From Oceanicella sp. SM1341 (GTDB lineage: Bacteria; Pseudomonadota; Alphaproteobacteria; Rhodobacterales; Rhodobacteraceae), in contig NZ_QRGC01000030.1 in assembly GCF_003448965.1 (NCBI RefSeq), positions 6,991 through 38,990 of the forward strand: DNA of 32,000 nucleotides, in the 5' to 3' direction. Positions 3 to 16,927 of the stretch are shown here, piece by piece; the first letter of the stretch is position 1; each line of letters begins with the position of its first letter. Both the position numbers and the translations under genes were made by a program. The notes under the pieces were generated by a model, which saw only the letters and a program-made list of their open reading frames with translations, searched no databases and was not told the DNA's origin.

Positions 3-1325
3 GTGTCGCCCGAGGATGCGGCGGACCTTGCCGACCTCAAGGGCTTCTCGCGCGATCTGATGGGCCAGATGGAGAAAGATCTTGGCACGCCGCTCGACTG
101 GGTCGGTGTCGATCACTGGAACACCGACAATCCCCATGTGCATATCATTCTGCGCGGACGGATGGAGGACGGCCAGGACCTTGTCATCTCCCGCGACTAT
201 ATCAAGGAGGGGATGCGCGCGCGGGCTGCCGATCTCGTCACCCAGGAACTCGGACCCCGCACCGATCTCGACATCCGGCGCGATCTGGAACGCCAGGTGG
301 AGGCCGAGCGCTGGACCCGGCTCGATCGCCAGCTCCTGCGCGATGGACGTGCAGCCAGCGTGATCGATACGGCGCCGGTGCCCGATCGCCAGCCCGACGA
401 ATACCAGCCGCTCAAGGTTGGCCGTCTGCGCAAGCTGGAAACCCTCGGTCTCGCCGCCGAGGTCGGCCCCGGCCAATGGGTGATCGACGACAAGGCCGAG
501 GCGACCCTGCGCGAGCTCGGCGAGCGCGGCGACATCATCAAGCGCATGCACCGGGCGCTGACGGAGCGCGGGATCGACCGTGGGTCGGCAAGCTATGTGC
601 TGGCCGCCGAAAGCCTCGACACGCCGATCATTGGTAAGCTGGTCGACCGCGGACTCGACGATGAGCTGAAGGGTACGGCCTATGCCGTGGTCGACGGCGT
701 CGATGGACGCACCCATCACATCCGCCTGTCCGATCTCGATGCAGCCGGGGATTCAGCGCCCGGCTCGATCGTCGAGTTGCGCCGGTTCGACAATGCGAAG
801 GGAGAACGGCGTGTCGCCCTCGCAGTGCGCTCCGATCTCGACATCGAGCGGCAGGTGACGGCGCCCGGCGCGACTTGGCTCGACCGGCAGAACGTGGCCC
901 GCGATCCCGCGGCATTGTCCGATGTCGGCTTCGGCGCCGAGGTGCGCCATGCCCTCCAGCGGCGCGCCGAACATCTTGTCGGTGAGGGCTTCGCCGAACG
1001 GACCGGTCAGCGCATCCGGTTCACCAGCAATCTGATCGACAGGCTGCGCAACCGCGAGGTGGAGCAACTCGGCGAGAAGCTCGCCGCCGAGACCGGCTCG
1101 ACCTTCAACCGTGCCGGCAGCGGCGATTATGTCGCCGGCGCCTATCGCCAGCGTTTCTCGCTCGCCTCCGGTCGCTTCGCCATGATCGATGACGGCCTCG
1201 GCTTCCAGCTTGTGCCCTGGACCCCGTCTATCGAGAAGCAACTCGGCAAACATATCTCCGGCGTCGCCCGCAACGATGGTGGCATCGACTGGAGCTTCGG
1301 TCGCAAGCGCGGCCTCGGTCTCTGA
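3..1325 (+). CDS. Relaxase/mobilization nuclease with DUF3363-type C-terminal region (5'-truncated by window edge)
   Basis: The ORF is open to the window start. It carries the relaxase histidine motif HWNTDNPHVHIILRG (HxDxxxPHxH). The long C-terminal region ends in GRKRGLGL, typical of relaxase+DUF3363 proteins found directly upstream of traG in Trb-type elements. Confidence 0.8.
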   Translation: MSPEDAADLADLKGFSRDLMGQMEKDLGTPLDWVGVDHWNTDNPHVHIILRGRMEDGQDLVISRDYIKEGMRARAADLVTQELGPRTDLDIRRDLERQVEAERWTRLDRQLLRDGRAASVIDTAPVPDRQPDEYQPLKVGRLRKLETLGLAAEVGPGQWVIDDKAEATLRELGERGDIIKRMHRALTERGIDRGSASYVLAAESLDTPIIGKLVDRGLDDELKGTAYAVVDGVDGRTHHIRLSDLDAAGDSAPGSIVELRRFDNAKGERRVALAVRSDLDIERQVTAPGATWLDRQNVARDPAALSDVGFGAEVRHALQRRAEHLVGEGFAERTGQRIRFTSNLIDRLRNREVEQLGEKLAAETGSTFNRAGSGDYVAGAYRQRFSLASGRFAMIDDGLGFQLVPWTPSIEKQLGKHISGVARNDGGIDWSFGRKRGLGL

Positions 1326-1352
1326 TCCAACAAACAGGAAAGGCCATCACCC

Positions 1353-3344
1353 ATGTCCGGTACCAAGATCCTCTGGGGGCAGATCCTCACGGTCTTTCTG
1401 ATCGTTCTTCTCACCACCTGGGGCGCGACCGAATATGTCGCCTGGAGGCTCGGGTTTCAGGCGCAGCTCGGATCGCCCTGGTTCATCCTGCTGGGCTGGC
1501 CGGTCTATCTGCCGCCGTCCTTCTTCTGGTGGTGGTATGCCTACGATGCCTATGCCCCCGACATCTTCGTCCGCGGCGCCTTCATCGCCGCGTCGGGCGG
1601 TTTCCTCGCCATCGCTGTCGCGATCGGCATGTCGGTCTGGCGCGCACGCGAGGCCAAGAAGGCGGAAACCTATGGCTCGGCGCGTTGGGCAGAGGCGCAG
1701 GAGGTGAAGTCGGCCGGGCTGCTGCGCCCCGATGGCGTGGTGCTCGGGCAATATAATCGTGACTATCTTCGCCACGACGGGCCGGAGCATGTCCTGTGTT
1801 TCGCGCCGACCCGATCAGGCAAGGGCGTCGGTCTCGTCGTCCCGTCGCTGCTGACCTGGCCCGGATCGGCGATCGTCCACGACATCAAGGGTGAGAACTG
1901 GCAGCTCACCTCCGGGTTCAGATCGCGCCACGCCCGCGTGCTCCTGTTTGACCCAACCAACGCCAAATCCGCCGCCTACAATCCGCTGCTCGAAGTGCGG
2001 CGCGGCGAATGGGAAGTGCGCGATGTCCAGAACATCGCCGACATCCTGGTCGACCCCGAAGGCAGCCTCGAGAAGCGAAACCATTGGGAGAAGACCTCTC
2101 ATGCGCTCTTGGTCGGCGCCATCCTGCATGTGCTCTATGCCGAGACGGACAAGACGCTGGCCGGTGTCGCCGCCTTCCTCTCCGACCCAGGGCGGCCAAT
2201 CGAGTCGACGCTGGCCACCATGATGAAGACGGCGCATCTGGGGCAGGGGGGACCGCATCCCGTCATCGCCAGCGCGGCGCGCGAACTGCTCAACAAGTCC
2301 GACAACGAGCGCTCGGGCGTGCTCTCCACGGCCATGTCGTTCCTCGGCCTCTATCGCGATCCTGTGGTGGCCGAAGTTACCCGGCGCTGCGACTGGCGCA
2401 TCGGCGACATCGTGGGCGCAAAAGACCCCACCACGCTCTATCTCGTCGTTCCTCCCTCCGACATCAACCGCACCAAGCCGTTGATCCGCCTGATCCTCAA
2501 TCAGGTGGGCCGTCGACTAACAGAAGATCTGCAGGCGAAAGCGGGCCGCCACCGGCTGCTGCTGATGCTCGACGAGTTTCCGGCGCTCGGCCGGCTCGAC
2601 TTCTTCGAGAGCGCACTCGCCTTCATGGCCGGTTATGGGCTGAAAAGCTTCCTGATCGCGCAATCGCTGAACCAGATCGAGAAGGCCTACGGCGCCAACA
2701 ACTCGATCCTCGACAATTGCCATGTTCGCGTCAGCTTCGCGACCAACGACGAACGCACGGCCAAGCGCGTCTCCGATGCACTCGGCACGGCCACGCAGAT
2801 GAAGGCGATGAAGAACTATGCCGGACACAGGCTCAGCCCCTGGCTCGGGCACCTCATGGTGTCGCGCTCGGAGACCGCGCGGCCGCTGCTCACCCCCGGC
2901 GAAATCATGCAGCTTCCGCCGAGCGACGAGATCGTCATGGTCGCGGGCACACCACCGATCCGGGCGAAGAAGGCCCGCTACTACGAGGACGCGCGCTTCA
3001 GCGAACGCATCTTGCCGCCACCGGCACACAGCGCGCCGAATGAGGGCCGCCCGGATGATTGGACCACGCTTCCATTGCCGGCGCGCCCGGCAGTGGCTGA
3101 GACGAAGGGTGCAACAGTGTCTCAGGACGAGGATACGACCGACTCCGAGCGCCGCCGTCAACCCGAACTCAGCCGGGTGAAGCCGGTGGAAAAGAAGGTA
3201 CCGATCGACAACCCCTTCGAACTGGATGCTGATCGAGACGAGGAGCTCGACGATGCTGCAACGCGCAATCAGCGCATGACCGGGCTCATGCAAGGGGTGG
3301 CGCGGCAGGTCTCGCTTGATCCGAACGACGGCATGGAGCTGTGA
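1353..3344 (+). CDS. traG: Type IV coupling protein TraG (VirD4 family)
   Basis: 663 aa with N-terminal hydrophobic segments. Walker A is APTRSGKGVGLVVPS and Walker B is LLLMLDEFPALG. SD AGGAAAGG lies upstream of the ATG at 1353. Confidence 0.95.
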   Translation: MSGTKILWGQILTVFLIVLLTTWGATEYVAWRLGFQAQLGSPWFILLGWPVYLPPSFFWWWYAYDAYAPDIFVRGAFIAASGGFLAIAVAIGMSVWRAREAKKAETYGSARWAEAQEVKSAGLLRPDGVVLGQYNRDYLRHDGPEHVLCFAPTRSGKGVGLVVPSLLTWPGSAIVHDIKGENWQLTSGFRSRHARVLLFDPTNAKSAAYNPLLEVRRGEWEVRDVQNIADILVDPEGSLEKRNHWEKTSHALLVGAILHVLYAETDKTLAGVAAFLSDPGRPIESTLATMMKTAHLGQGGPHPVIASAARELLNKSDNERSGVLSTAMSFLGLYRDPVVAEVTRRCDWRIGDIVGAKDPTTLYLVVPPSDINRTKPLIRLILNQVGRRLTEDLQAKAGRHRLLLMLDEFPALGRLDFFESALAFMAGYGLKSFLIAQSLNQIEKAYGANNSILDNCHVRVSFATNDERTAKRVSDALGTATQMKAMKNYAGHRLSPWLGHLMVSRSETARPLLTPGEIMQLPPSDEIVMVAGTPPIRAKKARYYEDARFSERILPPPAHSAPNEGRPDDWTTLPLPARPAVAETKGATVSQDEDTTDSERRRQPELSRVKPVEKKVPIDNPFELDADRDEELDDAATRNQRMTGLMQGVARQVSLDPNDGMEL

Positions 3345-8127: not shown

Positions 8128-8885
8128 TCCGCACCCGATCCAGCGCCCGGCGCTTCGCCCTGGCGCTTCTCAGCGCGCCCGTTCTTCTGACCCCGATACT
8201 GGCGACGCCCGCCTATGCGATCATCGTGTTCGATCCCTCGAACTACGCACAAAACGTCCTGACGGCGGCGCGCGCGCTCGAACAGATCAACAATCAGATC
8301 ACCTCGCTTCAGAACCAGGCGCAGATGCTGATCAACCAGGCCCGCAACCTCGCGAGCCTTCCGTTTTCCTCGCTGCAACAGCTTCAGCAATCCGTGCAGC
8401 GCACCCAGCAACTTCTCGCCCAAGCGCAGAACATCGCCTACAACGTGCAGCGGATCGATCAGGCGTTTCAGACCAAATACGCCAATGTCTCGATGTCCGC
8501 ATCGGACGCGCAGCTCGTCGCCGATGCCAGAACCCGCTGGCAGAACACCGTGGGCGGCCTGCAGGACGCCATGCGCGTACAGGCAACCGTCGTCGGCAAT
8601 ATCGAGACCAACCGCCAGCAGATGTCGGCGCTGGTGGGCGCGAGCCAGTCAGCGACGGGCGCTCTCCAGGCGACGCAGGCTGGCAACCAGCTTCTCGCCC
8701 TGCAGGCCCAGCAGCTCTCCGACCTCACAGCCGTCATCTCCGCGAATGGTCGCGCGCAGGCCCTGCACGATGCCGAGCAGGCCGCCGCGGCTGAACAGGG
8801 CCGCGAACAGCGTCGCCGCTTCCTGACCCCCGGTTCGGGCTACCAGCCCGGCAACGCCCGGATGTTCCCGGGCAGCGACAGTTGA
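8124..8885 (+). CDS. trbJ: TrbJ (VirB5-like)
   Basis: There is an ATGA overlap with the trbE stop. A signal peptide (LLTPILATPAYA) is followed by a Q/L-rich coiled-coil-like sequence typical of TrbJ. Confidence 0.85.
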   Translation: MIRTRSSARRFALALLSAPVLLTPILATPAYAIIVFDPSNYAQNVLTAARALEQINNQITSLQNQAQMLINQARNLASLPFSSLQQLQQSVQRTQQLLAQAQNIAYNVQRIDQAFQTKYANVSMSASDAQLVADARTRWQNTVGGLQDAMRVQATVVGNIETNRQQMSALVGASQSATGALQATQAGNQLLALQAQQLSDLTAVISANGRAQALHDAEQAAAAEQGREQRRRFLTPGSGYQPGNARMFPGSDS

Positions 8886-8895
8886 GGGCAGGGCG

Positions 8896-9165
8896 ATGGA
8901 CGGCAAGACCCTCGCACGCATCGGCGCCATCGTCTTCGTCGCGGTCGCGATCACCGCCACCGTGATCCAGATGACCCGCAAAGATGCGGTGCCTCCAGCG
9001 CCCGCCGCGTCCTCCGCGCCGACGGCGGACAGGCAAGATCCGCTGAGCGCGGAGCTAACCCGATGCAGCCAGGCCGGAGAAGCCGCCACACATGATCCAG
9101 CCTGCCTTAATGCCTGGGCCGAGAACCGTCGGCGTTTCCTCGGTCACAGCAGCGAAGGGCGCTGA
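8896..9165 (+). CDS. trbK: Putative entry-exclusion protein TrbK-alt
   Basis: 89 aa. The N-terminal TM segment is LARIGAIVFVAVAITATVI and the C-terminal motif is CLNAWAENRRRFLG. It sits between trbJ and trbL. Confidence 0.6.
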   Translation: MDGKTLARIGAIVFVAVAITATVIQMTRKDAVPPAPAASSAPTADRQDPLSAELTRCSQAGEAATHDPACLNAWAENRRRFLGHSSEGR

Positions 9166-9229
9166 ACGTGAAAGTAGAGATGAAGCGCTCCATCGCCTTC
9201 CGGAGACGAGTTTCTCTATCCCTCTTCCC

Positions 9230-9263
9230 GAACCGGACATGCAGGTTTCCAAGCATCCGGCTC
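9230..9263 (-). ncRNA. Group II intron domain V
   Basis: The minus strand reads GAGCCGGATGCTTGGAAACCTGCATGTCCGGTTC. This is a 34-nt hairpin with the AGC triad, a G-U wobble, a 2-nt bulge and a GAAA-type apical loop. Confidence 0.9.
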
Positions 9264-9299
9264 TCCATGCACGGGCGGTCGTCAGCCCGTGGGTGTGCC

Positions 9300-10826
9300 T
9301 CAAACGCGTCTGAGGCGCGCGAACGCAGTCCAGAAGTCAAGCAGGGTTTCCCGATGCCTGTTTTCCCATCTTGCGTTCCATCCGTTCGGTTTCTCGATTC
9401 GCTGTTCCGGGTAACGCATGGTTCCTCCGTCAGTGAAGAACCGCAGGCGTCTGGACCCTTCGGTCCATTGCCGTCGTTTTCCGGGGGCGCTGAGATGATA
9501 GCGGCGCCGCAGGGTCGGCCAACCCGCATTGCCGTGCTTCATCTTCAACCAGCGCCCGACGCGCTGCCATATCCAGAAGTCGAGATGGCTGAACCGACCG
9601 TGCGCGCCTGTGGCGTAACGGTAATAGTTCCTCCACCCCGTGATGACCGGATTGAGCCTGTCGATGACGTAGGCAAGGTCGCGTCCCGTGGGGATGCCCC
9701 TCACCATGACCTTGATCTTGTGGCGCAGGTCGTTCAGCTTTCCCTTCGGGATGAAGAGATTGCCGACCCATCGGCCTGTCCGACAGGCTCTGGTCTGCGC
9801 CACCCGGTAGCCGAGGAAGTCGAAGCCTTCCCTGACATCGGTGATCCGGGTCTTTTCCATCGACAGTTCCATGCGAAGCTCCGTCTTCAGGAACTCCGCC
9901 AGCGCGAGCTTTTCCGCTTCCGCCTGCTCCCGCGTGCCATCCACGAGAACGACGAAGTCGTCCGCGTATCGCACCATGTAGAGCACCGGCCGACCCCTCT
10001 TGTGGTCTCTGACCCTTCGGGCCGCCGGATTGATGCTCGGTTCGCGGGGGCGGCCTGTCCACCATCCATACCGCTCGTCGATGGCTGTCAGGTAGATGTT
10101 CGACAGCATCGGCGAGATGATCCCGCCTTGCGGCGAGCCGGTGACGGGGTGGCGTTCGGTCCCTTCGACCATCACACCGGCTTTCAGGAACGAGAGGATC
10201 AGCGCCAGCACCTTGCGGTCGCCGATGCGTTTCCGGACCCGCTCCATCATGACGTGATGATCGATGGCGTCGAAGCAGCCCTTGATGTCTCCCTCTATGA
10301 CATAGCGATAGACCGAGGGTCCGCGCTTTGTCGGGTGAAGGAACCTCTGGATTCTTGCCAGAGCATCGTGGGTGCTTCGACCGCGCCGGAACCCGTAGGA
10401 GGTCGGATAGAAGTCCGCCTCGAAGATAGGCTCCAGGACCAGCTTCAAAGCCATCTGCACCAGACGATCGACCAACGTTGGAATGCCGAGTGGCCGGAAC
10501 TGCCCCGGTTTGCCGGGCTTTGGGATAAGCCGCTGCCTGACCGGTTGGGGACGATAGGTTCCGTTGCGAAGCACCTCGCGTATCTCATCGAGGAACCCTG
10601 CTGCGCCACCGGGACGCTGTTCGACCATGCGCCGCGTCACCCCGTCGGTGCCGGGTGTCTGGCTGCCCCGATTACCGGACAGCCTTCGCCACGCCTCCTC
10701 AAGGAATCGGCGGTCGCATACGAGATTGAACAGACCAGCGAAGACCTTGTCGGGGTCTTCGTTGCTCCACCGATACAGCTTGCGCTGCATGTCGAGGACG
10801 AACAAGATATTCATCTCGTTGGACAT
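9300..10826 (-). CDS. Group II intron reverse transcriptase/maturase (no En domain)
   Basis: 508 aa from the ATG at 10826, preceded by AGGAGG with a 7 nt spacer. RT motifs present: IPKPGKPGQFRPLGIPTLVDRLVQ, DIKGCFD, GSPQGGIISPMLSNIYL, RYADDFVVL. The maturase X motif is ITGWRNYYRYA. The C-terminal ~90 aa contain no Cys and no HNH signature. Confidence 0.93.
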   Translation of the reverse strand: MSNEMNILFVLDMQRKLYRWSNEDPDKVFAGLFNLVCDRRFLEEAWRRLSGNRGSQTPGTDGVTRRMVEQRPGGAAGFLDEIREVLRNGTYRPQPVRQRLIPKPGKPGQFRPLGIPTLVDRLVQMALKLVLEPIFEADFYPTSYGFRRGRSTHDALARIQRFLHPTKRGPSVYRYVIEGDIKGCFDAIDHHVMMERVRKRIGDRKVLALILSFLKAGVMVEGTERHPVTGSPQGGIISPMLSNIYLTAIDERYGWWTGRPREPSINPAARRVRDHKRGRPVLYMVRYADDFVVLVDGTREQAEAEKLALAEFLKTELRMELSMEKTRITDVREGFDFLGYRVAQTRACRTGRWVGNLFIPKGKLNDLRHKIKVMVRGIPTGRDLAYVIDRLNPVITGWRNYYRYATGAHGRFSHLDFWIWQRVGRWLKMKHGNAGWPTLRRRYHLSAPGKRRQWTEGSRRLRFFTDGGTMRYPEQRIEKPNGWNARWENRHRETLLDFWTAFARLRRV

Positions 10827-11464
10827 GGGTCCACCTCCTGCCTGCTCGCTGTATCCACTGCCTTCCTTCGCCATGTGGACGGCTTTCCCGTCCCCGGACT
10901 ACTACGAAGGCTCCGCCCCTCACCATCGCGGTCGCTGGTCGCTTCAGCCATCCGGGGTCCGACTGTTCCGGAAGCGACGGCAAGGTTCTTAGGTTCCGTA
11001 ACTGATCTCTCGCCTGCTTTAGGCGCCGACTTTACCCCGTGTGGATTCCGACCCCGATACCGCGCAAGCTCATATCGAGGCTGGCGCACGGCACGCCGCA
11101 CACCCCCAGCCCATGTGTCCATAGCACGGGCCAACGCTCCACAAATCTGCGGTTCGCACCACAGACCGACCCGCCGACTTCCGAGTTGGCGTGTCTCCGC
11201 GCGTAACGAGGCGTCCGCCATCGGTTCGGTTTCCCTCGCCATGGCAGGCTCGCTGGCCGGACCACGTACGGGATCGGAAGTCCCCGCCCGTCCGGCTTTG
11301 ATGGGTTCTGCTGATTTATGGCTCCCCGGAAGCACCCGGTTTGCCTCACCCATCGGCTTGTCACCGCATGTTGCGCCACACGGTGCGCGGGGCCTTTCAT
11401 CCCGCGAGATCAGAAACGACAATAAAATCAAAGCACTCCTTTCTTTGATCAGGACCTAACGCAC

Positions 11465-12796
11465 ATGGGCAACACCGGCGTCATCGATCACTTCCTCGAT
11501 GTCTTTACCCGCTACATCGACGGCGGCTTCGGTCTGCTTGGCGGCGAGGTCGGTTTCATCGCCACCACGCTGATCGTCATCGACGTGACGCTGGCCGCGC
11601 TCTTCTGGTCCTGGGGCGCCGACGACGACATCATGGCGCGGCTCGTCAAGAAGACGCTTTTCGTCGGTGTTTTCGCCTACATCATCTCCAACTGGAACAA
11701 TCTGGCCCGGATCGTTTTCGAAAGCTTCGCGGGGCTCGGCCTGAAGGCGTCCGGCACGGGCTTTACCACGGCCCAGCTTCTCCAGCCCGGCAAGGTCGCC
11801 CAGACCGGCCTTGATGCGGGGAGGCCGCTGCTCGATTCCATCTCGAACCTGATGGGCTATTGGTCCTTCTTCGAGAATTTCATCCAGATCGCCTGCATGT
11901 TCTTCGCCTGGGCGCTGGTGCTCTTGGCCTTCTTCATCCTCGCCATCCAGCTCTTCGTCACGCTGATCGAGTTCAAGCTGACGACGCTCGCCGGCTTCGT
12001 GCTGATCCCCTTCGGTCTCTTCGGCAAGTCCGCCTTCATGGCCGAGCGGGTGCTCGGTAACGTCATCTCCTCGGGCATCAAGGTTCTGGTGCTCGCCGTT
12101 ATCATCGGTATCGGCTCGACACTCTTTTCCGAATTCGCCGCAGGGTTTGGCGGCGCGACACCGACCATCGACGATGCGATGGCGATCGTGCTGGCAGCCC
12201 TTTCACTGCTTGGCCTCGGCATTTTCGGCCCCGGTATCGCAACGGGGCTCGTCTCCGGCGGTCCCCAGCTTGGCGCCGGATCGGCGATCGGCAGCGGTCT
12301 TGCTGCCGGCGGCATGGTCGTCGCGGGCGGCGCGGCGCTCGGGGCTGCGGCCTCCGGTGGCGCATCTCTCCTTGGCGGAGCGGCGGCAGCCGCCCGTGGT
12401 GGGGCCGCGCTCGCGGGCGGGGCATCCACCGCCTACAGCCTCGGCGCCGCCGGACAGACCGGCGCGTCCGCCGTTGCATCTGGCCTCGGCAATGTCGCCA
12501 GCACCGGCGCATCGCAGGCTGGATCTGCCTTGGTCAGCCCGCTCAGACGCGCCGCGGGATCGATGCGCGGCAGCTTCGAGGCCGGTGGGCGTGCCGTCTC
12601 CGGCGAAGCCGCTGCCGATGAACGTGCATCGGCCGCAGCCGCAGCCTCATCTGCGCCCGACAGCCCGCCTGCCTGGGCAAAGCGCATGAAGCGCTCCCAA
12701 GCCATGTCCCACGGGATGCAGGTCGCAGCCCATTCCGTCCGCAGCGGCGACAGCCACGGCAGCGGCTCTTCCGTCAACACCTCCGAAAGCGACTGA
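11465..12796 (+). CDS. trbL: TrbL (VirB6 family)
   Basis: 443 aa. The N-terminus GVIDHFLDVFTRYIDGGFGLLGGEVGFIATTLIVIDVTLA is typical of TrbL. It has multiple TM segments and a Gly/Ala-rich C-terminal tail. Confidence 0.93.
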   Translation: MGNTGVIDHFLDVFTRYIDGGFGLLGGEVGFIATTLIVIDVTLAALFWSWGADDDIMARLVKKTLFVGVFAYIISNWNNLARIVFESFAGLGLKASGTGFTTAQLLQPGKVAQTGLDAGRPLLDSISNLMGYWSFFENFIQIACMFFAWALVLLAFFILAIQLFVTLIEFKLTTLAGFVLIPFGLFGKSAFMAERVLGNVISSGIKVLVLAVIIGIGSTLFSEFAAGFGGATPTIDDAMAIVLAALSLLGLGIFGPGIATGLVSGGPQLGAGSAIGSGLAAGGMVVAGGAALGAAASGGASLLGGAAAAARGGAALAGGASTAYSLGAAGQTGASAVASGLGNVASTGASQAGSALVSPLRRAAGSMRGSFEAGGRAVSGEAAADERASAAAAASSAPDSPPAWAKRMKRSQAMSHGMQVAAHSVRSGDSHGSGSSVNTSESD

Positions 12797-12798
12797 CC

Positions 12799-13479
12799 AT
12801 GTTCAAGCGATCCGCCACCCACTACGGCAAATCCCCTCAGCCTGAGACACCCTACCAGCGGGCGGCGCAGGTCTGGGACGAACGCATCGGCTCCGCCCGC
12901 GTCCAGGCGAGGAACTGGCGCCTCATGGCTTTCGGCTGCCTCATTCTGTCCGGTGGACTTTCGGGCGCACTGGTCTGGCAATCGCTGAGTGGCTCAATCG
13001 TGCCGTGGGTGGTGCAGGTGGACAAGCTCGGCCAGGCCCAGGCCGTCGCGCCCGCGACCGCCGACTACACACCGAACGACGCCCAGGTCGCCTGGTATCT
13101 CGCCCGCTTCATCGAGGAGGTCCGCTCGATCCCGGCCGATCCGATCATCGTCCGGCAGAACTGGCTTCGGGCCTATGACTTCACCACGACCGCGGGCGCG
13201 CAGGCGCTCAACAACTATGCCCGCGCCAACGATCCCTTCGCCAAGGTGGGCAAGCAGCAAATCGCGGTGGGGGTGTCGTCGGTCATTCGCGCCTCACCGT
13301 CGAGCTTCCGCATCGCCTGGGTCGAGCGCCGCTATCAGGACGGTTCGCTCGCCAGCACCGAGCGCTGGTCGGCGATCCTCACCGTCGCGGTCCAAGCACC
13401 GCGCGATGCCGACACGCTGCGAAAGAACCCGCTCGGAATCTACGTCACCGCAATCAACTGGTCGAAGGAGCTTGGATGA
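12799..13479 (+). CDS. trbF: TrbF (VirB8-like)
   Basis: 226 aa starting 2 nt after the trbL stop. It has a single N-terminal TM (WRLMAFGCLILSGGLSGALVW) and the conserved position. Confidence 0.9.
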   Translation: MFKRSATHYGKSPQPETPYQRAAQVWDERIGSARVQARNWRLMAFGCLILSGGLSGALVWQSLSGSIVPWVVQVDKLGQAQAVAPATADYTPNDAQVAWYLARFIEEVRSIPADPIIVRQNWLRAYDFTTTAGAQALNNYARANDPFAKVGKQQIAVGVSSVIRASPSSFRIAWVERRYQDGSLASTERWSAILTVAVQAPRDADTLRKNPLGIYVTAINWSKELG

Positions 13480-15774: not shown

Positions 15775-16014
15775 ATGACCAAACTGAAACTTGGGCCACT
15801 CGCCGACGACAAGCCGGTCAAGGTCACACTGGAGCTGCCCGCCAGCCTGCACCGAGACTTGACCGCCTATGCCACAATCCTTGCCCGAGAGGTGGGGCAG
15901 CCCGCCGCCGATCCTACTCGCCTGATCGTCCCCATGCTGGAGCGGTTCATCGCGACGGATCGCGGCTTTGCGAAGGCCCGGCGGACATTGCCGAGAGAAT
16001 CTCCGCCGGGCTAG
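15775..16014 (+). CDS. DUF2274 family protein (conserved last gene of Trb-type transfer modules)
   Basis: 79 aa, MTKLKLGPLADDKPVKVTLELPASLHRDLTAYA..., starting 2 nt after the trbI stop. Both the position and the sequence are characteristic of the family. Confidence 0.8.
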   Translation: MTKLKLGPLADDKPVKVTLELPASLHRDLTAYATILAREVGQPAADPTRLIVPMLERFIATDRGFAKARRTLPRESPPG

Positions 16015-16927
16015 GGTCGCTTGCGCTATGGGATTTTGCCATCTGGCGCGCCATGCTGATCAGACGCCGACTGGCAGGATTGTCATTGTGCGGCGACCAG
16101 ACTGCGCTGAAGGGCAGCACCTCACCCTGGATCGGCCGATAGACGACGCCTGGAAACTGCGCGGCCGTCGTCGCTTCGCTGGTCAAGGTCAAGCCACGAC
16201 CGATCGCGACCAAGGTCATGAGGTTGTCCCTTCCAACACTTTGCGCCTCAATCTCTGGGTGCCGACCAAGCTCGGCGAGCCGCTGCATCAGAAAATCGTG
16301 AATCTCCGGCCCTGGGGCGGAATCGCTAATGATGAAACGCTCTCCTGAGACATCCGTCCACTCGATCTCGTCGAGTTGCGCCAGCGTATGTTGGAGCGGG
16401 AGAACCAGAAAGACGCGCTCGCTCCAGAGGTGCATGGTATCGCAGCCTCTCCAAGCCGCTGTCCCAGTTATGAACGCGACGTCGAGCCGAAGCTGACGCA
16501 CCGCGGCAACATGTTCCGCCGGATTGCCGTTGATCAAATCAATCGAGACACCAGCATGGGCCCGATCATAGGAATTGAGCAACTCGTGAAGAAAGCCGGA
16601 CGCCAGCGATGAAAATATTCCGATCTTGATTTGCCCTTCTTCCGATCTGCCGATGCCTGCAACCTCGTTGGCGCCTTGATGGACGCTTTTCAGAGCCGTT
16701 CGGGCTCGGACCAAAAAGCGCTGTCCAGCCACCGTCAGGAGCACACCAGTGGTCCTGCGTTGGAATAGCGATGCGCCTAGCATGTCTTCGAGATCGCGAA
16801 GACGGCGGCTGACAGCGGACTCCTGCATGCCAAGCGCCTTCGCAGCCTTGCGGAAACTGCCTTGTTCCGCTGCAGCTACGAAATATCGGAGATGCCTAAG
16901 TTCTATGCGGAGATCGCATCTGGCCAT
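15947..16927 (-). CDS. LysR family transcriptional regulator
   Basis: The N-terminal wHTH is LRHLRYFVAAAEQGSFRKAAKALGMQESAVSRRLRDLE, followed by a LysR substrate-binding domain. The last ~22 codons run antisense into the DUF2274 gene. Confidence 0.88.
   Translation of the reverse strand: MARCDLRIELRHLRYFVAAAEQGSFRKAAKALGMQESAVSRRLRDLEDMLGASLFQRRTTGVLLTVAGQRFLVRARTALKSVHQGANEVAGIGRSEEGQIKIGIFSSLASGFLHELLNSYDRAHAGVSIDLINGNPAEHVAAVRQLRLDVAFITGTAAWRGCDTMHLWSERVFLVLPLQHTLAQLDEIEWTDVSGERFIISDSAPGPEIHDFLMQRLAELGRHPEIEAQSVGRDNLMTLVAIGRGLTLTSEATTAAQFPGVVYRPIQGEVLPFSAVWSPHNDNPASRRLISMARQMAKSHSASDPSPAEILSAMSAGPSQSRDPSR

Follow-up and report, generated by a model that had tools for sequence, protein, structure and literature searches.

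An antisense group II intron lineage at the trbK/trbL junction with a conserved, end-to-end open reverse strand

Introduction

How might a conjugation operon live with a long intron that it would be unable to splice? The question is raised by a 32,000-nucleotide (nt) stretch of DNA from Oceanicella sp. SM1341 (contig NZ_QRGC01000030.1, positions 6,991 to 38,990), hereafter the window, from whose first letter all coordinates are counted. Within its trb operon, between trbK and trbL, lies a group II intron in antisense orientation. The original prediction, made from the sequence letters, had drawn attention to the intron's other strand: in the direction of the operon, a single frame is free of stops from 9111 to the TAA at 11457–11459, the earliest start codon in it is the GTG at 9168, its stop lies 5 nt before the trbL ATG at 11465, and the frame bridges the trbK stop to the trbL start. 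All of this is confirmed by the sequence. Is such a frame an accident of GC-rich DNA, a gene, or something else? Here we report that its openness and length are conserved among related introns and its peptide is not, and we discuss what this pattern may mean for the operon and for the intron.

An open frame on the reverse strand

The bridge open reading frame (ORF) is wholly intronic, with its GTG at antisense position 1 and its TAA at positions 2290–2292; an alternative in-frame start is the ATG at 9180–9182. Its frame (frame 0) is codon-aligned with the reverse transcriptase (RT) ORF of the intron, and the RT of this copy uses no TTA, CTA or TCA codon. The frame is also open across 132 + 582 nt of non-coding ribozyme, and the other two forward frames hold 27 and 28 stops. 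How often would such a frame arise by chance? Dinucleotide-preserving shuffles left the non-coding 132 + 582 nt without frame-0 stops in 207 of 20000 trials, and the RT part would be stop-free with a probability of 0.22 or 0.07 (Leu and Ser codons resampled from host or sister-lineage usage), for a joint chance of 0.0007–0.0023; when the whole sequence was shuffled, 0 of 3000 trials were stop-free. In other words, the shuffle control proposed with the original prediction rarely produces such frames. The single-copy chance is rare, yet it is not decisive for a feature picked by eye.

The same frame in other copies

RT-based scans of genomes, metagenomes and viral contigs yielded about 170 loci, and a large protein collection held more than 100 RT relatives at 66–91% identity, for twelve of which DNA was fetched, chosen by identity and size of the DNA record only. 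All seven fetched copies at 78–91% RT identity are antisense, with the 5′ end against the trbL start and trbK or trbJ upstream. The hosts of trbL-site copies are Bradyrhizobium, Sphingopyxis, Mesorhizobium, Agrobacterium vitis, Sphingomonas (two copies) and two metagenome lineages; the metagenome copy L094 shares both the trbL site and the antisense orientation. Two lineages at 75–76% identity (L002 and L215/216) lie antisense in the leader of the relaxase gene traA. DNA searches found one intron copy only in the window's own genome and no further copies in 300 genomes of the family or 400 of the class, and the plasmid collection held no member of the trbL-site lineage, only relatives at 66–69%.

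These copies appear to have arrived separately. Host TrbL proteins are 47–90% identical, against 79–100% for the introns, and two introns that are 100% identical (L213 and L214) occupy two trb clusters of one Sphingomonas chromosome whose TrbL proteins are 70% identical, a sequence identity that indicates recent retrohoming within one cell. Since the introns are more alike than their host TrbL proteins, and since one genome holds an identical pair, the lineage spreads horizontally and its insertions are independent. The TrbL reading frames are all intact, as are the trb genes around every copy.

In 11 further distinct copies (75–91% RT identity), nine of them at the trbL start of diverged trb operons and two in the traA leader, the frame is likewise open, with only a terminal stop except in L215; this stop is at position 2290 of 2297, or, where a sublineage has lost 1 nt, at 2277–2280. 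Each of the other two frames has 20–29 stops in these copies. An alignment of the 12 copies (MAFFT, 76–92% identity) places these counts in context. In the 590 nt of 5′ non-coding sequence, frame-0 stop triplets are confined to the first 20 nt, and they are the terminal stops of the bridge ORF itself; across the same 590 nt, stop columns number 9 in frame 1 and 19 in frame 2, and 25 of these are polymorphic. Frame 0 has no stop column in the RT part, against 46 and 36 in the other frames, of which 68 are polymorphic. Stops come and go in the control frames far too often for this pattern to be explained by one lucky ancestor. A private-stop test on hand-picked open introns was dropped as partly circular, those introns having been chosen for lacking frame-0 stops, and control-frame turnover alone was used.

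Codon choice and indels tell the same story. The RT genes of the lineage use CTA in 0 of 474 cases, TCA in 0 of 126 and TTA in 0 of 43, i.e. 0 of 643 Leu/Ser codons where 16–31 would be expected, and A-ending codons make up 7–27% of their Val, Pro, Thr, Ala, Arg and Gly codons. Closed sister introns use CTA at 2.3%, TCA at 14% and TTA at 5%; the corresponding values for host trb genes are 1%, 9% and 0%. The 12-copy alignment has 3 gap runs, all at its extreme ends, against 29 in five equally diverged closed relatives. (Pairwise counts of indels under lenient gap penalties were dropped as an alignment artefact in favor of these MAFFT gap runs.) The frame is therefore not a simple shadow of the RT gene: it is not confined to the sense gene, and host codon usage does not explain it. 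The view that it could equally be chance is rejected by the shuffles and by the other copies that are open in the same frame.

The peptide is another matter. In the 190 codons outside the RT overlap, dN/dS is 0.53–1.09, and the fraction of variable columns at codon positions 3, 2 and 1 is 0.42, 0.45 and 0.49, the third position being the least variable. The product has no Pfam match. The bridge ORF thus has neither a dN/dS well below 1, nor an excess of third-position change, nor recognizable domains, and the earlier description of its product as junk holds. Openness and length are conserved; the peptide is not.

Start and stop signals at the two ends

Where the frame begins and ends is as distinctive as its openness. 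At both bridge ends, a stop overlaps the next start or lies within about 20 nt of it. At the upstream end, the trbK stop is 2 nt before the GTG at position 1 or at intron positions 2–4 with an ATG at 12; GTG(1) or ATG(12/13) is 0–7 nt from the trbK stop. The trbK stop and the trbL start overlap at many empty sites (...CC-ATGA...). With an antisense end that reads GTGA.. or GTAG.., the intron restores the trbK stop at the same position in L194, L195, L208, L210 and L212, where the last trbK codon changes only synonymously. At the downstream end, the frame finishes 5 or 16 nt before the trbL start, the 1-nt deletion of the sublineage merely shifting the stop from 5 to 16 nt. The AGGA that precedes the trbL ATG (Table 1) is possibly a weak Shine-Dalgarno (SD) sequence for re-initiation at trbL.

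What did the junction look like before the intron arrived? The empty site reads trbK-TGA-AC-ATG-trbL, and the GAAGGG upstream is, on the logic of that site, the original SD of trbL; it is now 8 nt, and not 7 nt as first stated, before the intron-borne GTG, which occupies the exact former place of the trbL ATG behind it. The original prediction had suggested that trbL itself started at GTG 9168 before the insertion. That proposal is ruled out by the end of the intron and by intron-less homologues. GTG-AAA is intron sequence because the intron reaches 9168, the GTG being the reverse complement of its last three bases; the intron-less homologues, on four plasmids, begin TrbL with M-G-(N/G)-T-G at 2–5 nt past the trbK stop and have unrelated sequence upstream. 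This comparison, which had been put forward as a check, counts against an ancestral GTG start.

The intron and its homing site

The element has the features of a group II intron: a GUGYG 5′ end, an A-Y 3′ end, domain V, domain VI with a branch A, and a domain IV protein with RT and maturase (X) domains. Its 5′ end, GTGCG, is the reverse complement of 11460–11464. The Rfam RF00029 match (54.9 bits against a gathering score of 40) covers the full model and ends ...CUACUUUcAC at 9168, with the bulged branch A of domain VI 8 nt from the intron 3′ end (...CUCU-A-CUU-UCAC); the 3′ end of relatives reads ...CCCT-A-CTC-TAC, which puts their bulged branch A at 7 nt, and the Rfam matches to them stop at the homologous base. 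The intron therefore spans 9168..11464, because both the Rfam alignment of domains V and VI and the domain VI homology of relatives end at 9168, and it measures 2297 nt instead of the 2291 nt first given. From the 5′ end to the RT start is 590 nt, and domains I–III are of normal length. The real RT start is probably M17 at 10826, which matches most database entries (508 amino acids); the nearest solved relatives of the protein are the T.el4h and LtrA RTs, and Pfam detected no HNH/En endonuclease domain in it.

The insertion site can be read from the intron itself. In 12 copies, a hairpin-loop hexamer, exon-binding site 1 (EBS1), pairs at 5–6 of 6 positions with the last six exon bases, intron-binding site 1 (IBS1), and the changes are compensatory: ATG.. 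pairs with ..CAT, GTG.. with ..CAC and, in the traA sublineage, ATTTGG with CCAGAT. From this covariation it follows that the start codon belongs to the homing site and that the antisense orientation is genuine. The intron 5′ end adjoins the trbL start codon in 10 copies. Non-canonical 5′ ends take the place of GUGCG in L210 (GCGCG), L094 (CTGCG) and L004 (TTGCG), three copies that may on this evidence be splicing-defective; even so, the antisense frame is open in L210 and L094.

Around the intron, the transfer module of the window is intact: DUF3363 relaxase, TraG, TrbB, TrbC/D, TrbE, TrbJ, TrbK, TrbL, TrbF, TrbG and TrbI, with the last three genes, trbF, trbG and trbI, encoding VirB8, CagX and TrbI domains downstream of trbL. 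The module resembles that of an integrative and conjugative element (ICE), with the DUF3363-type relaxase and TraG genes (3..3344) upstream of trbB–I, and a divergent LysR regulator lies directly beyond trbI (15947..16927). A promoter and terminator scan of 8600–12900 on both strands gave one weak promoter-like site in the RT gene and no intrinsic-terminator-like site, and C/G skew as an indicator of Rho sites was the same in the antisense intron as in neighboring genes; both were uninformative.

Table 1. Features of the trbK–intron–trbL region (window coordinates)
Feature	Position	Strand	Basis
trbK (entry-exclusion lipoprotein gene)	8896..9165 (TGA stop 9163–9165; 2 nt separate it from the intron)	+	Pfam TrbK E=2e-36
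Shine-Dalgarno GAAGGG	9154..9159	+	sequence; empty-site logic from intron-less homologues L174–L177
Group II intron, 2297 nt, antisense, between trbK stop (+2 nt) and trbL start codon	9168..11464	-	5′ GTGCG, Rfam, EBS1–IBS1 covariation, 12-copy alignment
Domains V and VI	9168..9265	-	Rfam alignment, fold, homologous ends in relatives
Antisense bridge ORF, 763 codons	9168..11459	+	sequence; open in 12/12 lineage members
RT/maturase ORF (intron-encoded)	9300..10874	-	Pfam RVT_1 2.7e-31, GIIM 2.7e-15
Sense-strand upstream ORF over domains I–III	10811..11431	-	AAGGAG 11436..11441, TTG start 11431
EBS1 loop ATGGAC	11117..11122	-	covariation across 12 copies
AGGA, 10 nt upstream of trbL ATG, in conserved antisense 5′ end of intron	11451..11454	+	kept in all trbL-site copies
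IBS1 GCCCAT, reverse complement of trbL codons 1–2	11465..11470	-	EBS1 pairing
trbL (VirB6-like), intact	11465..12796	+	Pfam TrbL 8.5e-57

A second open frame on the sense strand

The intron's own strand has an open frame of its own. An upstream ORF (uORF) of 206–214 codons, with AAGGAG at intron positions 24–29 and a TTG at 34, runs over domains I–III and ends 13 nt past the RT M17. It is stop-free in nearly all of the 12 lineage copies and also in the relatives L097, L095 and L010, whose antisense frames are closed. Might a periodic base composition open both strands at once? Phase-preserving shuffles reject this common cause: they leave the antisense and sense frames open in 0.8% and 1.1% of trials (1.1% for the uORF), and both jointly in 0.03%. 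The uORF may couple translation of the RT or protect the intron RNA.

The wider family

Beyond the lineage, the picture is mixed. Across 115 intact introns, totals of frame-0 antisense stops are bimodal, with ten introns at zero, a dip at 1–2 and a mode at 5–6. An RT part with zero stops goes with a zero-stop 5′ ribozyme part in the same frame (12/21 vs 18/110), an association that the other frames lack. On the RT tree, the zero class comprises the alphaproteobacterial group that includes the present intron, a Streptomyces-type clade and one singleton. The open actinobacterial introns lie in sense orientation in host genes, have a third-position GC content (GC3) above 0.8 and are open at about the chance rate; they are not taken as support. 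A family-wide Poisson excess of zero-stop introns was accordingly dropped as a proof, since rates differ between clades and the actinobacterial cases fit chance. Among actinobacterial relatives, L044, L070 and L031 are inserted in sense within host coding sequence, and the 5′ exon of L070, which translates to ...LLSDLPRKNCW, is transposase-like by eye only.

More distant relatives (59–72% identity) are antisense too, 0–25 nt upstream of gene starts in plasmids, ICEs and prophages. Most of them, at DUF736 and other sites, have 3–13 frame-0 stops scattered along its length; an open frame thus characterizes the trbL/traA lineage and a few others, and not the whole family. One relative, L217, is open for 2075 of 2297 nt. 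In the wider clade (59–76% RT identity), L002, L215/L216, L007, L192, L217, L218, L220, L221, L223 and L224 habitually lie antisense before gene starts, the downstream genes being the traA relaxase gene, DUF736, phage capsid, UCP036055 and small ORFs; these positions suggest that the clade homes to the antisense strand of translation-initiation regions. A relative at 69% identity in Shinella (L223–L225, H30–H36) is present in multiple copies on at least four plasmids of one strain, at DUF736-type and other sites, with a closed antisense frame (9 stops). In L006, at about 1950–2520, the 5′ part is replaced by unrelated sequence that by eye resembles an IstB ATPase gene of the IS21 type, so that L006 is probably dead and disrupted.

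What the open frame might do

Stop avoidance that is specific to one phase and one strand, that runs through coding and non-coding sequence alike, and that keeps length and not peptide points to translation of the antisense strand, and the positions at which the frame starts and stops suggest that it is the trb operon that benefits. We consider it probable that a translated bridge prevents Rho-dependent polarity and re-couples trbL. How would this work? An intron lineage that has no endonuclease would retrohome in antisense orientation to the trbK/trbL junction of P-type conjugative transfer operons through an EBS1–IBS1 pairing that includes the start codon, with a sister sublineage inserting in the traA relaxase leader. 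Unspliceable from the trb mRNA in that orientation, the intron would instead keep its reverse strand as an end-to-end, indel-free and stop-free translated spacer. Ribosomes ending trbK, or loading at the old trbL SD, would start at the intron GTG (position 1) or ATG (12/13), translate about 760 codons of meaningless peptide, terminate 5–16 nt short of the trbL start codon and re-initiate at it. Such unbroken translation would avert Rho-dependent polarity from the 2.3-kb insert and restore translational coupling, TrbL, TrbF, TrbG and TrbI would still be made, and the host element would conjugate, as the intron needs it to in order to reach new empty sites. We lean, by a narrower margin, toward the broader description of a natural non-polar insertion, paid for by a sequence-indifferent bridge ORF that mimics stop-start signals; taken with the uORF, both strands would then be shaped by ribosome cover.

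Several observations weigh against this account. GTG(1) is present in only four of nine distinct trbL-site sequences (the window's own copy, L200, L208 and L210), and the others must use ATG(12). In L002, at the traA leader, the frame continues about 110 nt beyond the traA ATG, and the geometry is thus less neat outside the trbL site. The comparison of further copies that the original prediction had called for found the frame free of internal stops, with the exception of L215, which carries two extra early stops at about positions 2 and 34–38. The twelve aligned copies are related, and the P-like numbers are thus approximate; exact P values would make the case look too strong. The distant relatives L003, L007 and L221 are open at other sites, with no coupling geometry worked out, and still other relatives are antisense beside gene starts yet closed, so that antisense insertion alone does not enforce openness. 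Finally, it is from sequence that we infer translation of the frame, Rho polarity as the avoided cost, and re-initiation at trbL; the same is true of transcription through the antisense intron.

What else could account for the pattern? Chance plus shared ancestry, by which a GC-rich shadow ORF chanced to run on through the ribozyme parts and passed to close relatives by descent, begins with some credit: the frame lies in the shadow register, codon-aligned with the RT gene, a single RT lacks TTA, CTA and TCA with 7–22% probability, and the actinobacterial relatives, with their GC3 above 0.8 and sense insertions, are fully open at about the expected rate. That credit is spent on the other copies, where control frames have 25 (5′ non-coding) and 68 (RT part) polymorphic stop columns against none in frame 0, where TCA, CTA and TTA number 0 of 643 against 16–31 expected, and where indels are nearly absent, while sister lineages of equal divergence have 3–13 stops. 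We regard this explanation as strongly disfavored, to the point of being very hard to sustain. An overlapping gene whose protein sequence matters, e.g. one that is disordered or basic and acts in conjugation or in intron mobility, would account for an ORF length, start and stop conserved across 12 copies, and is nevertheless improbable: there is no Pfam family, a dN/dS of 0.5–1.1 with a least-variable third position is not that of a constrained protein, L003 is open although it reads about 60% of the region in another phase, and a 1-nt deletion alters the C-terminal ~35 residues in one sublineage.

The main rival accepts that the strand is translated and differs on who profits. Here ribosome cover would serve the RNA, by blocking sense–antisense pairing (and with it RNase III cleavage or silencing of the RT and ribozyme) or by stabilizing the mRNA. 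It predicts the same signature of selection, openness without peptide constraint; the sense uORF over domains I–III hints that ribosome occupancy matters on both strands, and a few relatives at other sites are open (L221, L007). It leaves unexplained, however, why the frame starts at the trbK stop and trbL SD, why it ends 5–16 nt before trbL, and why the trbK stop is recreated. We therefore judge a benefit to the RNA unlikely, if clearly less so than either chance or a functional protein, and prefer a translated bridge that benefits the trb operon.

Comparison with known systems

How does this intron compare with what has been described before? Like the shadow ORFs of GC-rich genomes, the bridge frame keeps to the classic codon-aligned register over the 1575 nt that face the RT gene; shadow ORFs, however, end at gene borders and follow host codon usage, whereas the bridge frame crosses 714 nt of non-coding ribozyme, is open against codon usage and is conserved. 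Group IIC-attC introns in integrons, which recognize attC hairpins, consistently lie opposite to the transcription of neighboring genes, as the present intron does; we know of no report of an antisense ORF or coupling geometry in them. The closest parallel in logic is man-made. Engineered non-polar cassettes such as aphA-3 stop and restart translation at their edges and thereby allow downstream operon genes to be expressed, as the antisense strand of the intron would do, but they encode a useful protein and the whole insert need not be one frame.

Among natural introns, the specialized IIB1 introns at start or stop codons (Avi.groEL and EcKTE56.groEL; Michel et al. 2007) come near in site choice: insertion in groEL turns UAA into UAG and leaves the ORF intact (PMC12584367). 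They share with the present lineage a site-specific retrohoming within or beside a translation signal, in our case with a GTGA/GTAG end that recreates the trbK stop. Those introns are in sense orientation in housekeeping genes, are spliced, and have a 300–700 nt 5′-subterminal insertion in domain I (PMC12584367); the present one lies antisense, cannot be spliced out of the operon mRNA, has a 590-nt 5′ part and carries an end-to-end antisense ORF, and it thus has neither the sense orientation nor the 5′-subterminal insertion of that class. Ll.LtrB, in the relaxase gene of pRS01, is likewise a group II intron in a conjugation gene whose spread is tied to transfer of the host element (PMC6003770, PMC7293003). 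It is in sense orientation, and its host gene depends on splicing (PMC6003770), whereas here downstream expression would depend on translation through the intron. Neither a trbL-site intron nor an antisense ORF in group II introns was reported in the literature that we searched.

Outlook

If our reading is correct, the trbL-site introns represent a new form of coexistence between selfish DNA and its host, in which the element is translatable in reverse and the operon tolerates a 2.3-kb insert without splicing. They would also be a clean natural case of selection on the openness and length of an ORF alone, with the product unselected, a case relevant to the way in which long antisense ORFs are annotated and then dismissed as "junk". 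Rho-dependent polarity and termination-reinitiation would become directly testable as forces that shape mobile elements, and the geometry of the junction suggests design rules for non-polar insertions of the targetron type. More broadly, the work defines a site-specific antisense intron lineage, at the trbL start and in the traA leader, that is carried by ICEs and plasmids across the Alphaproteobacteria.

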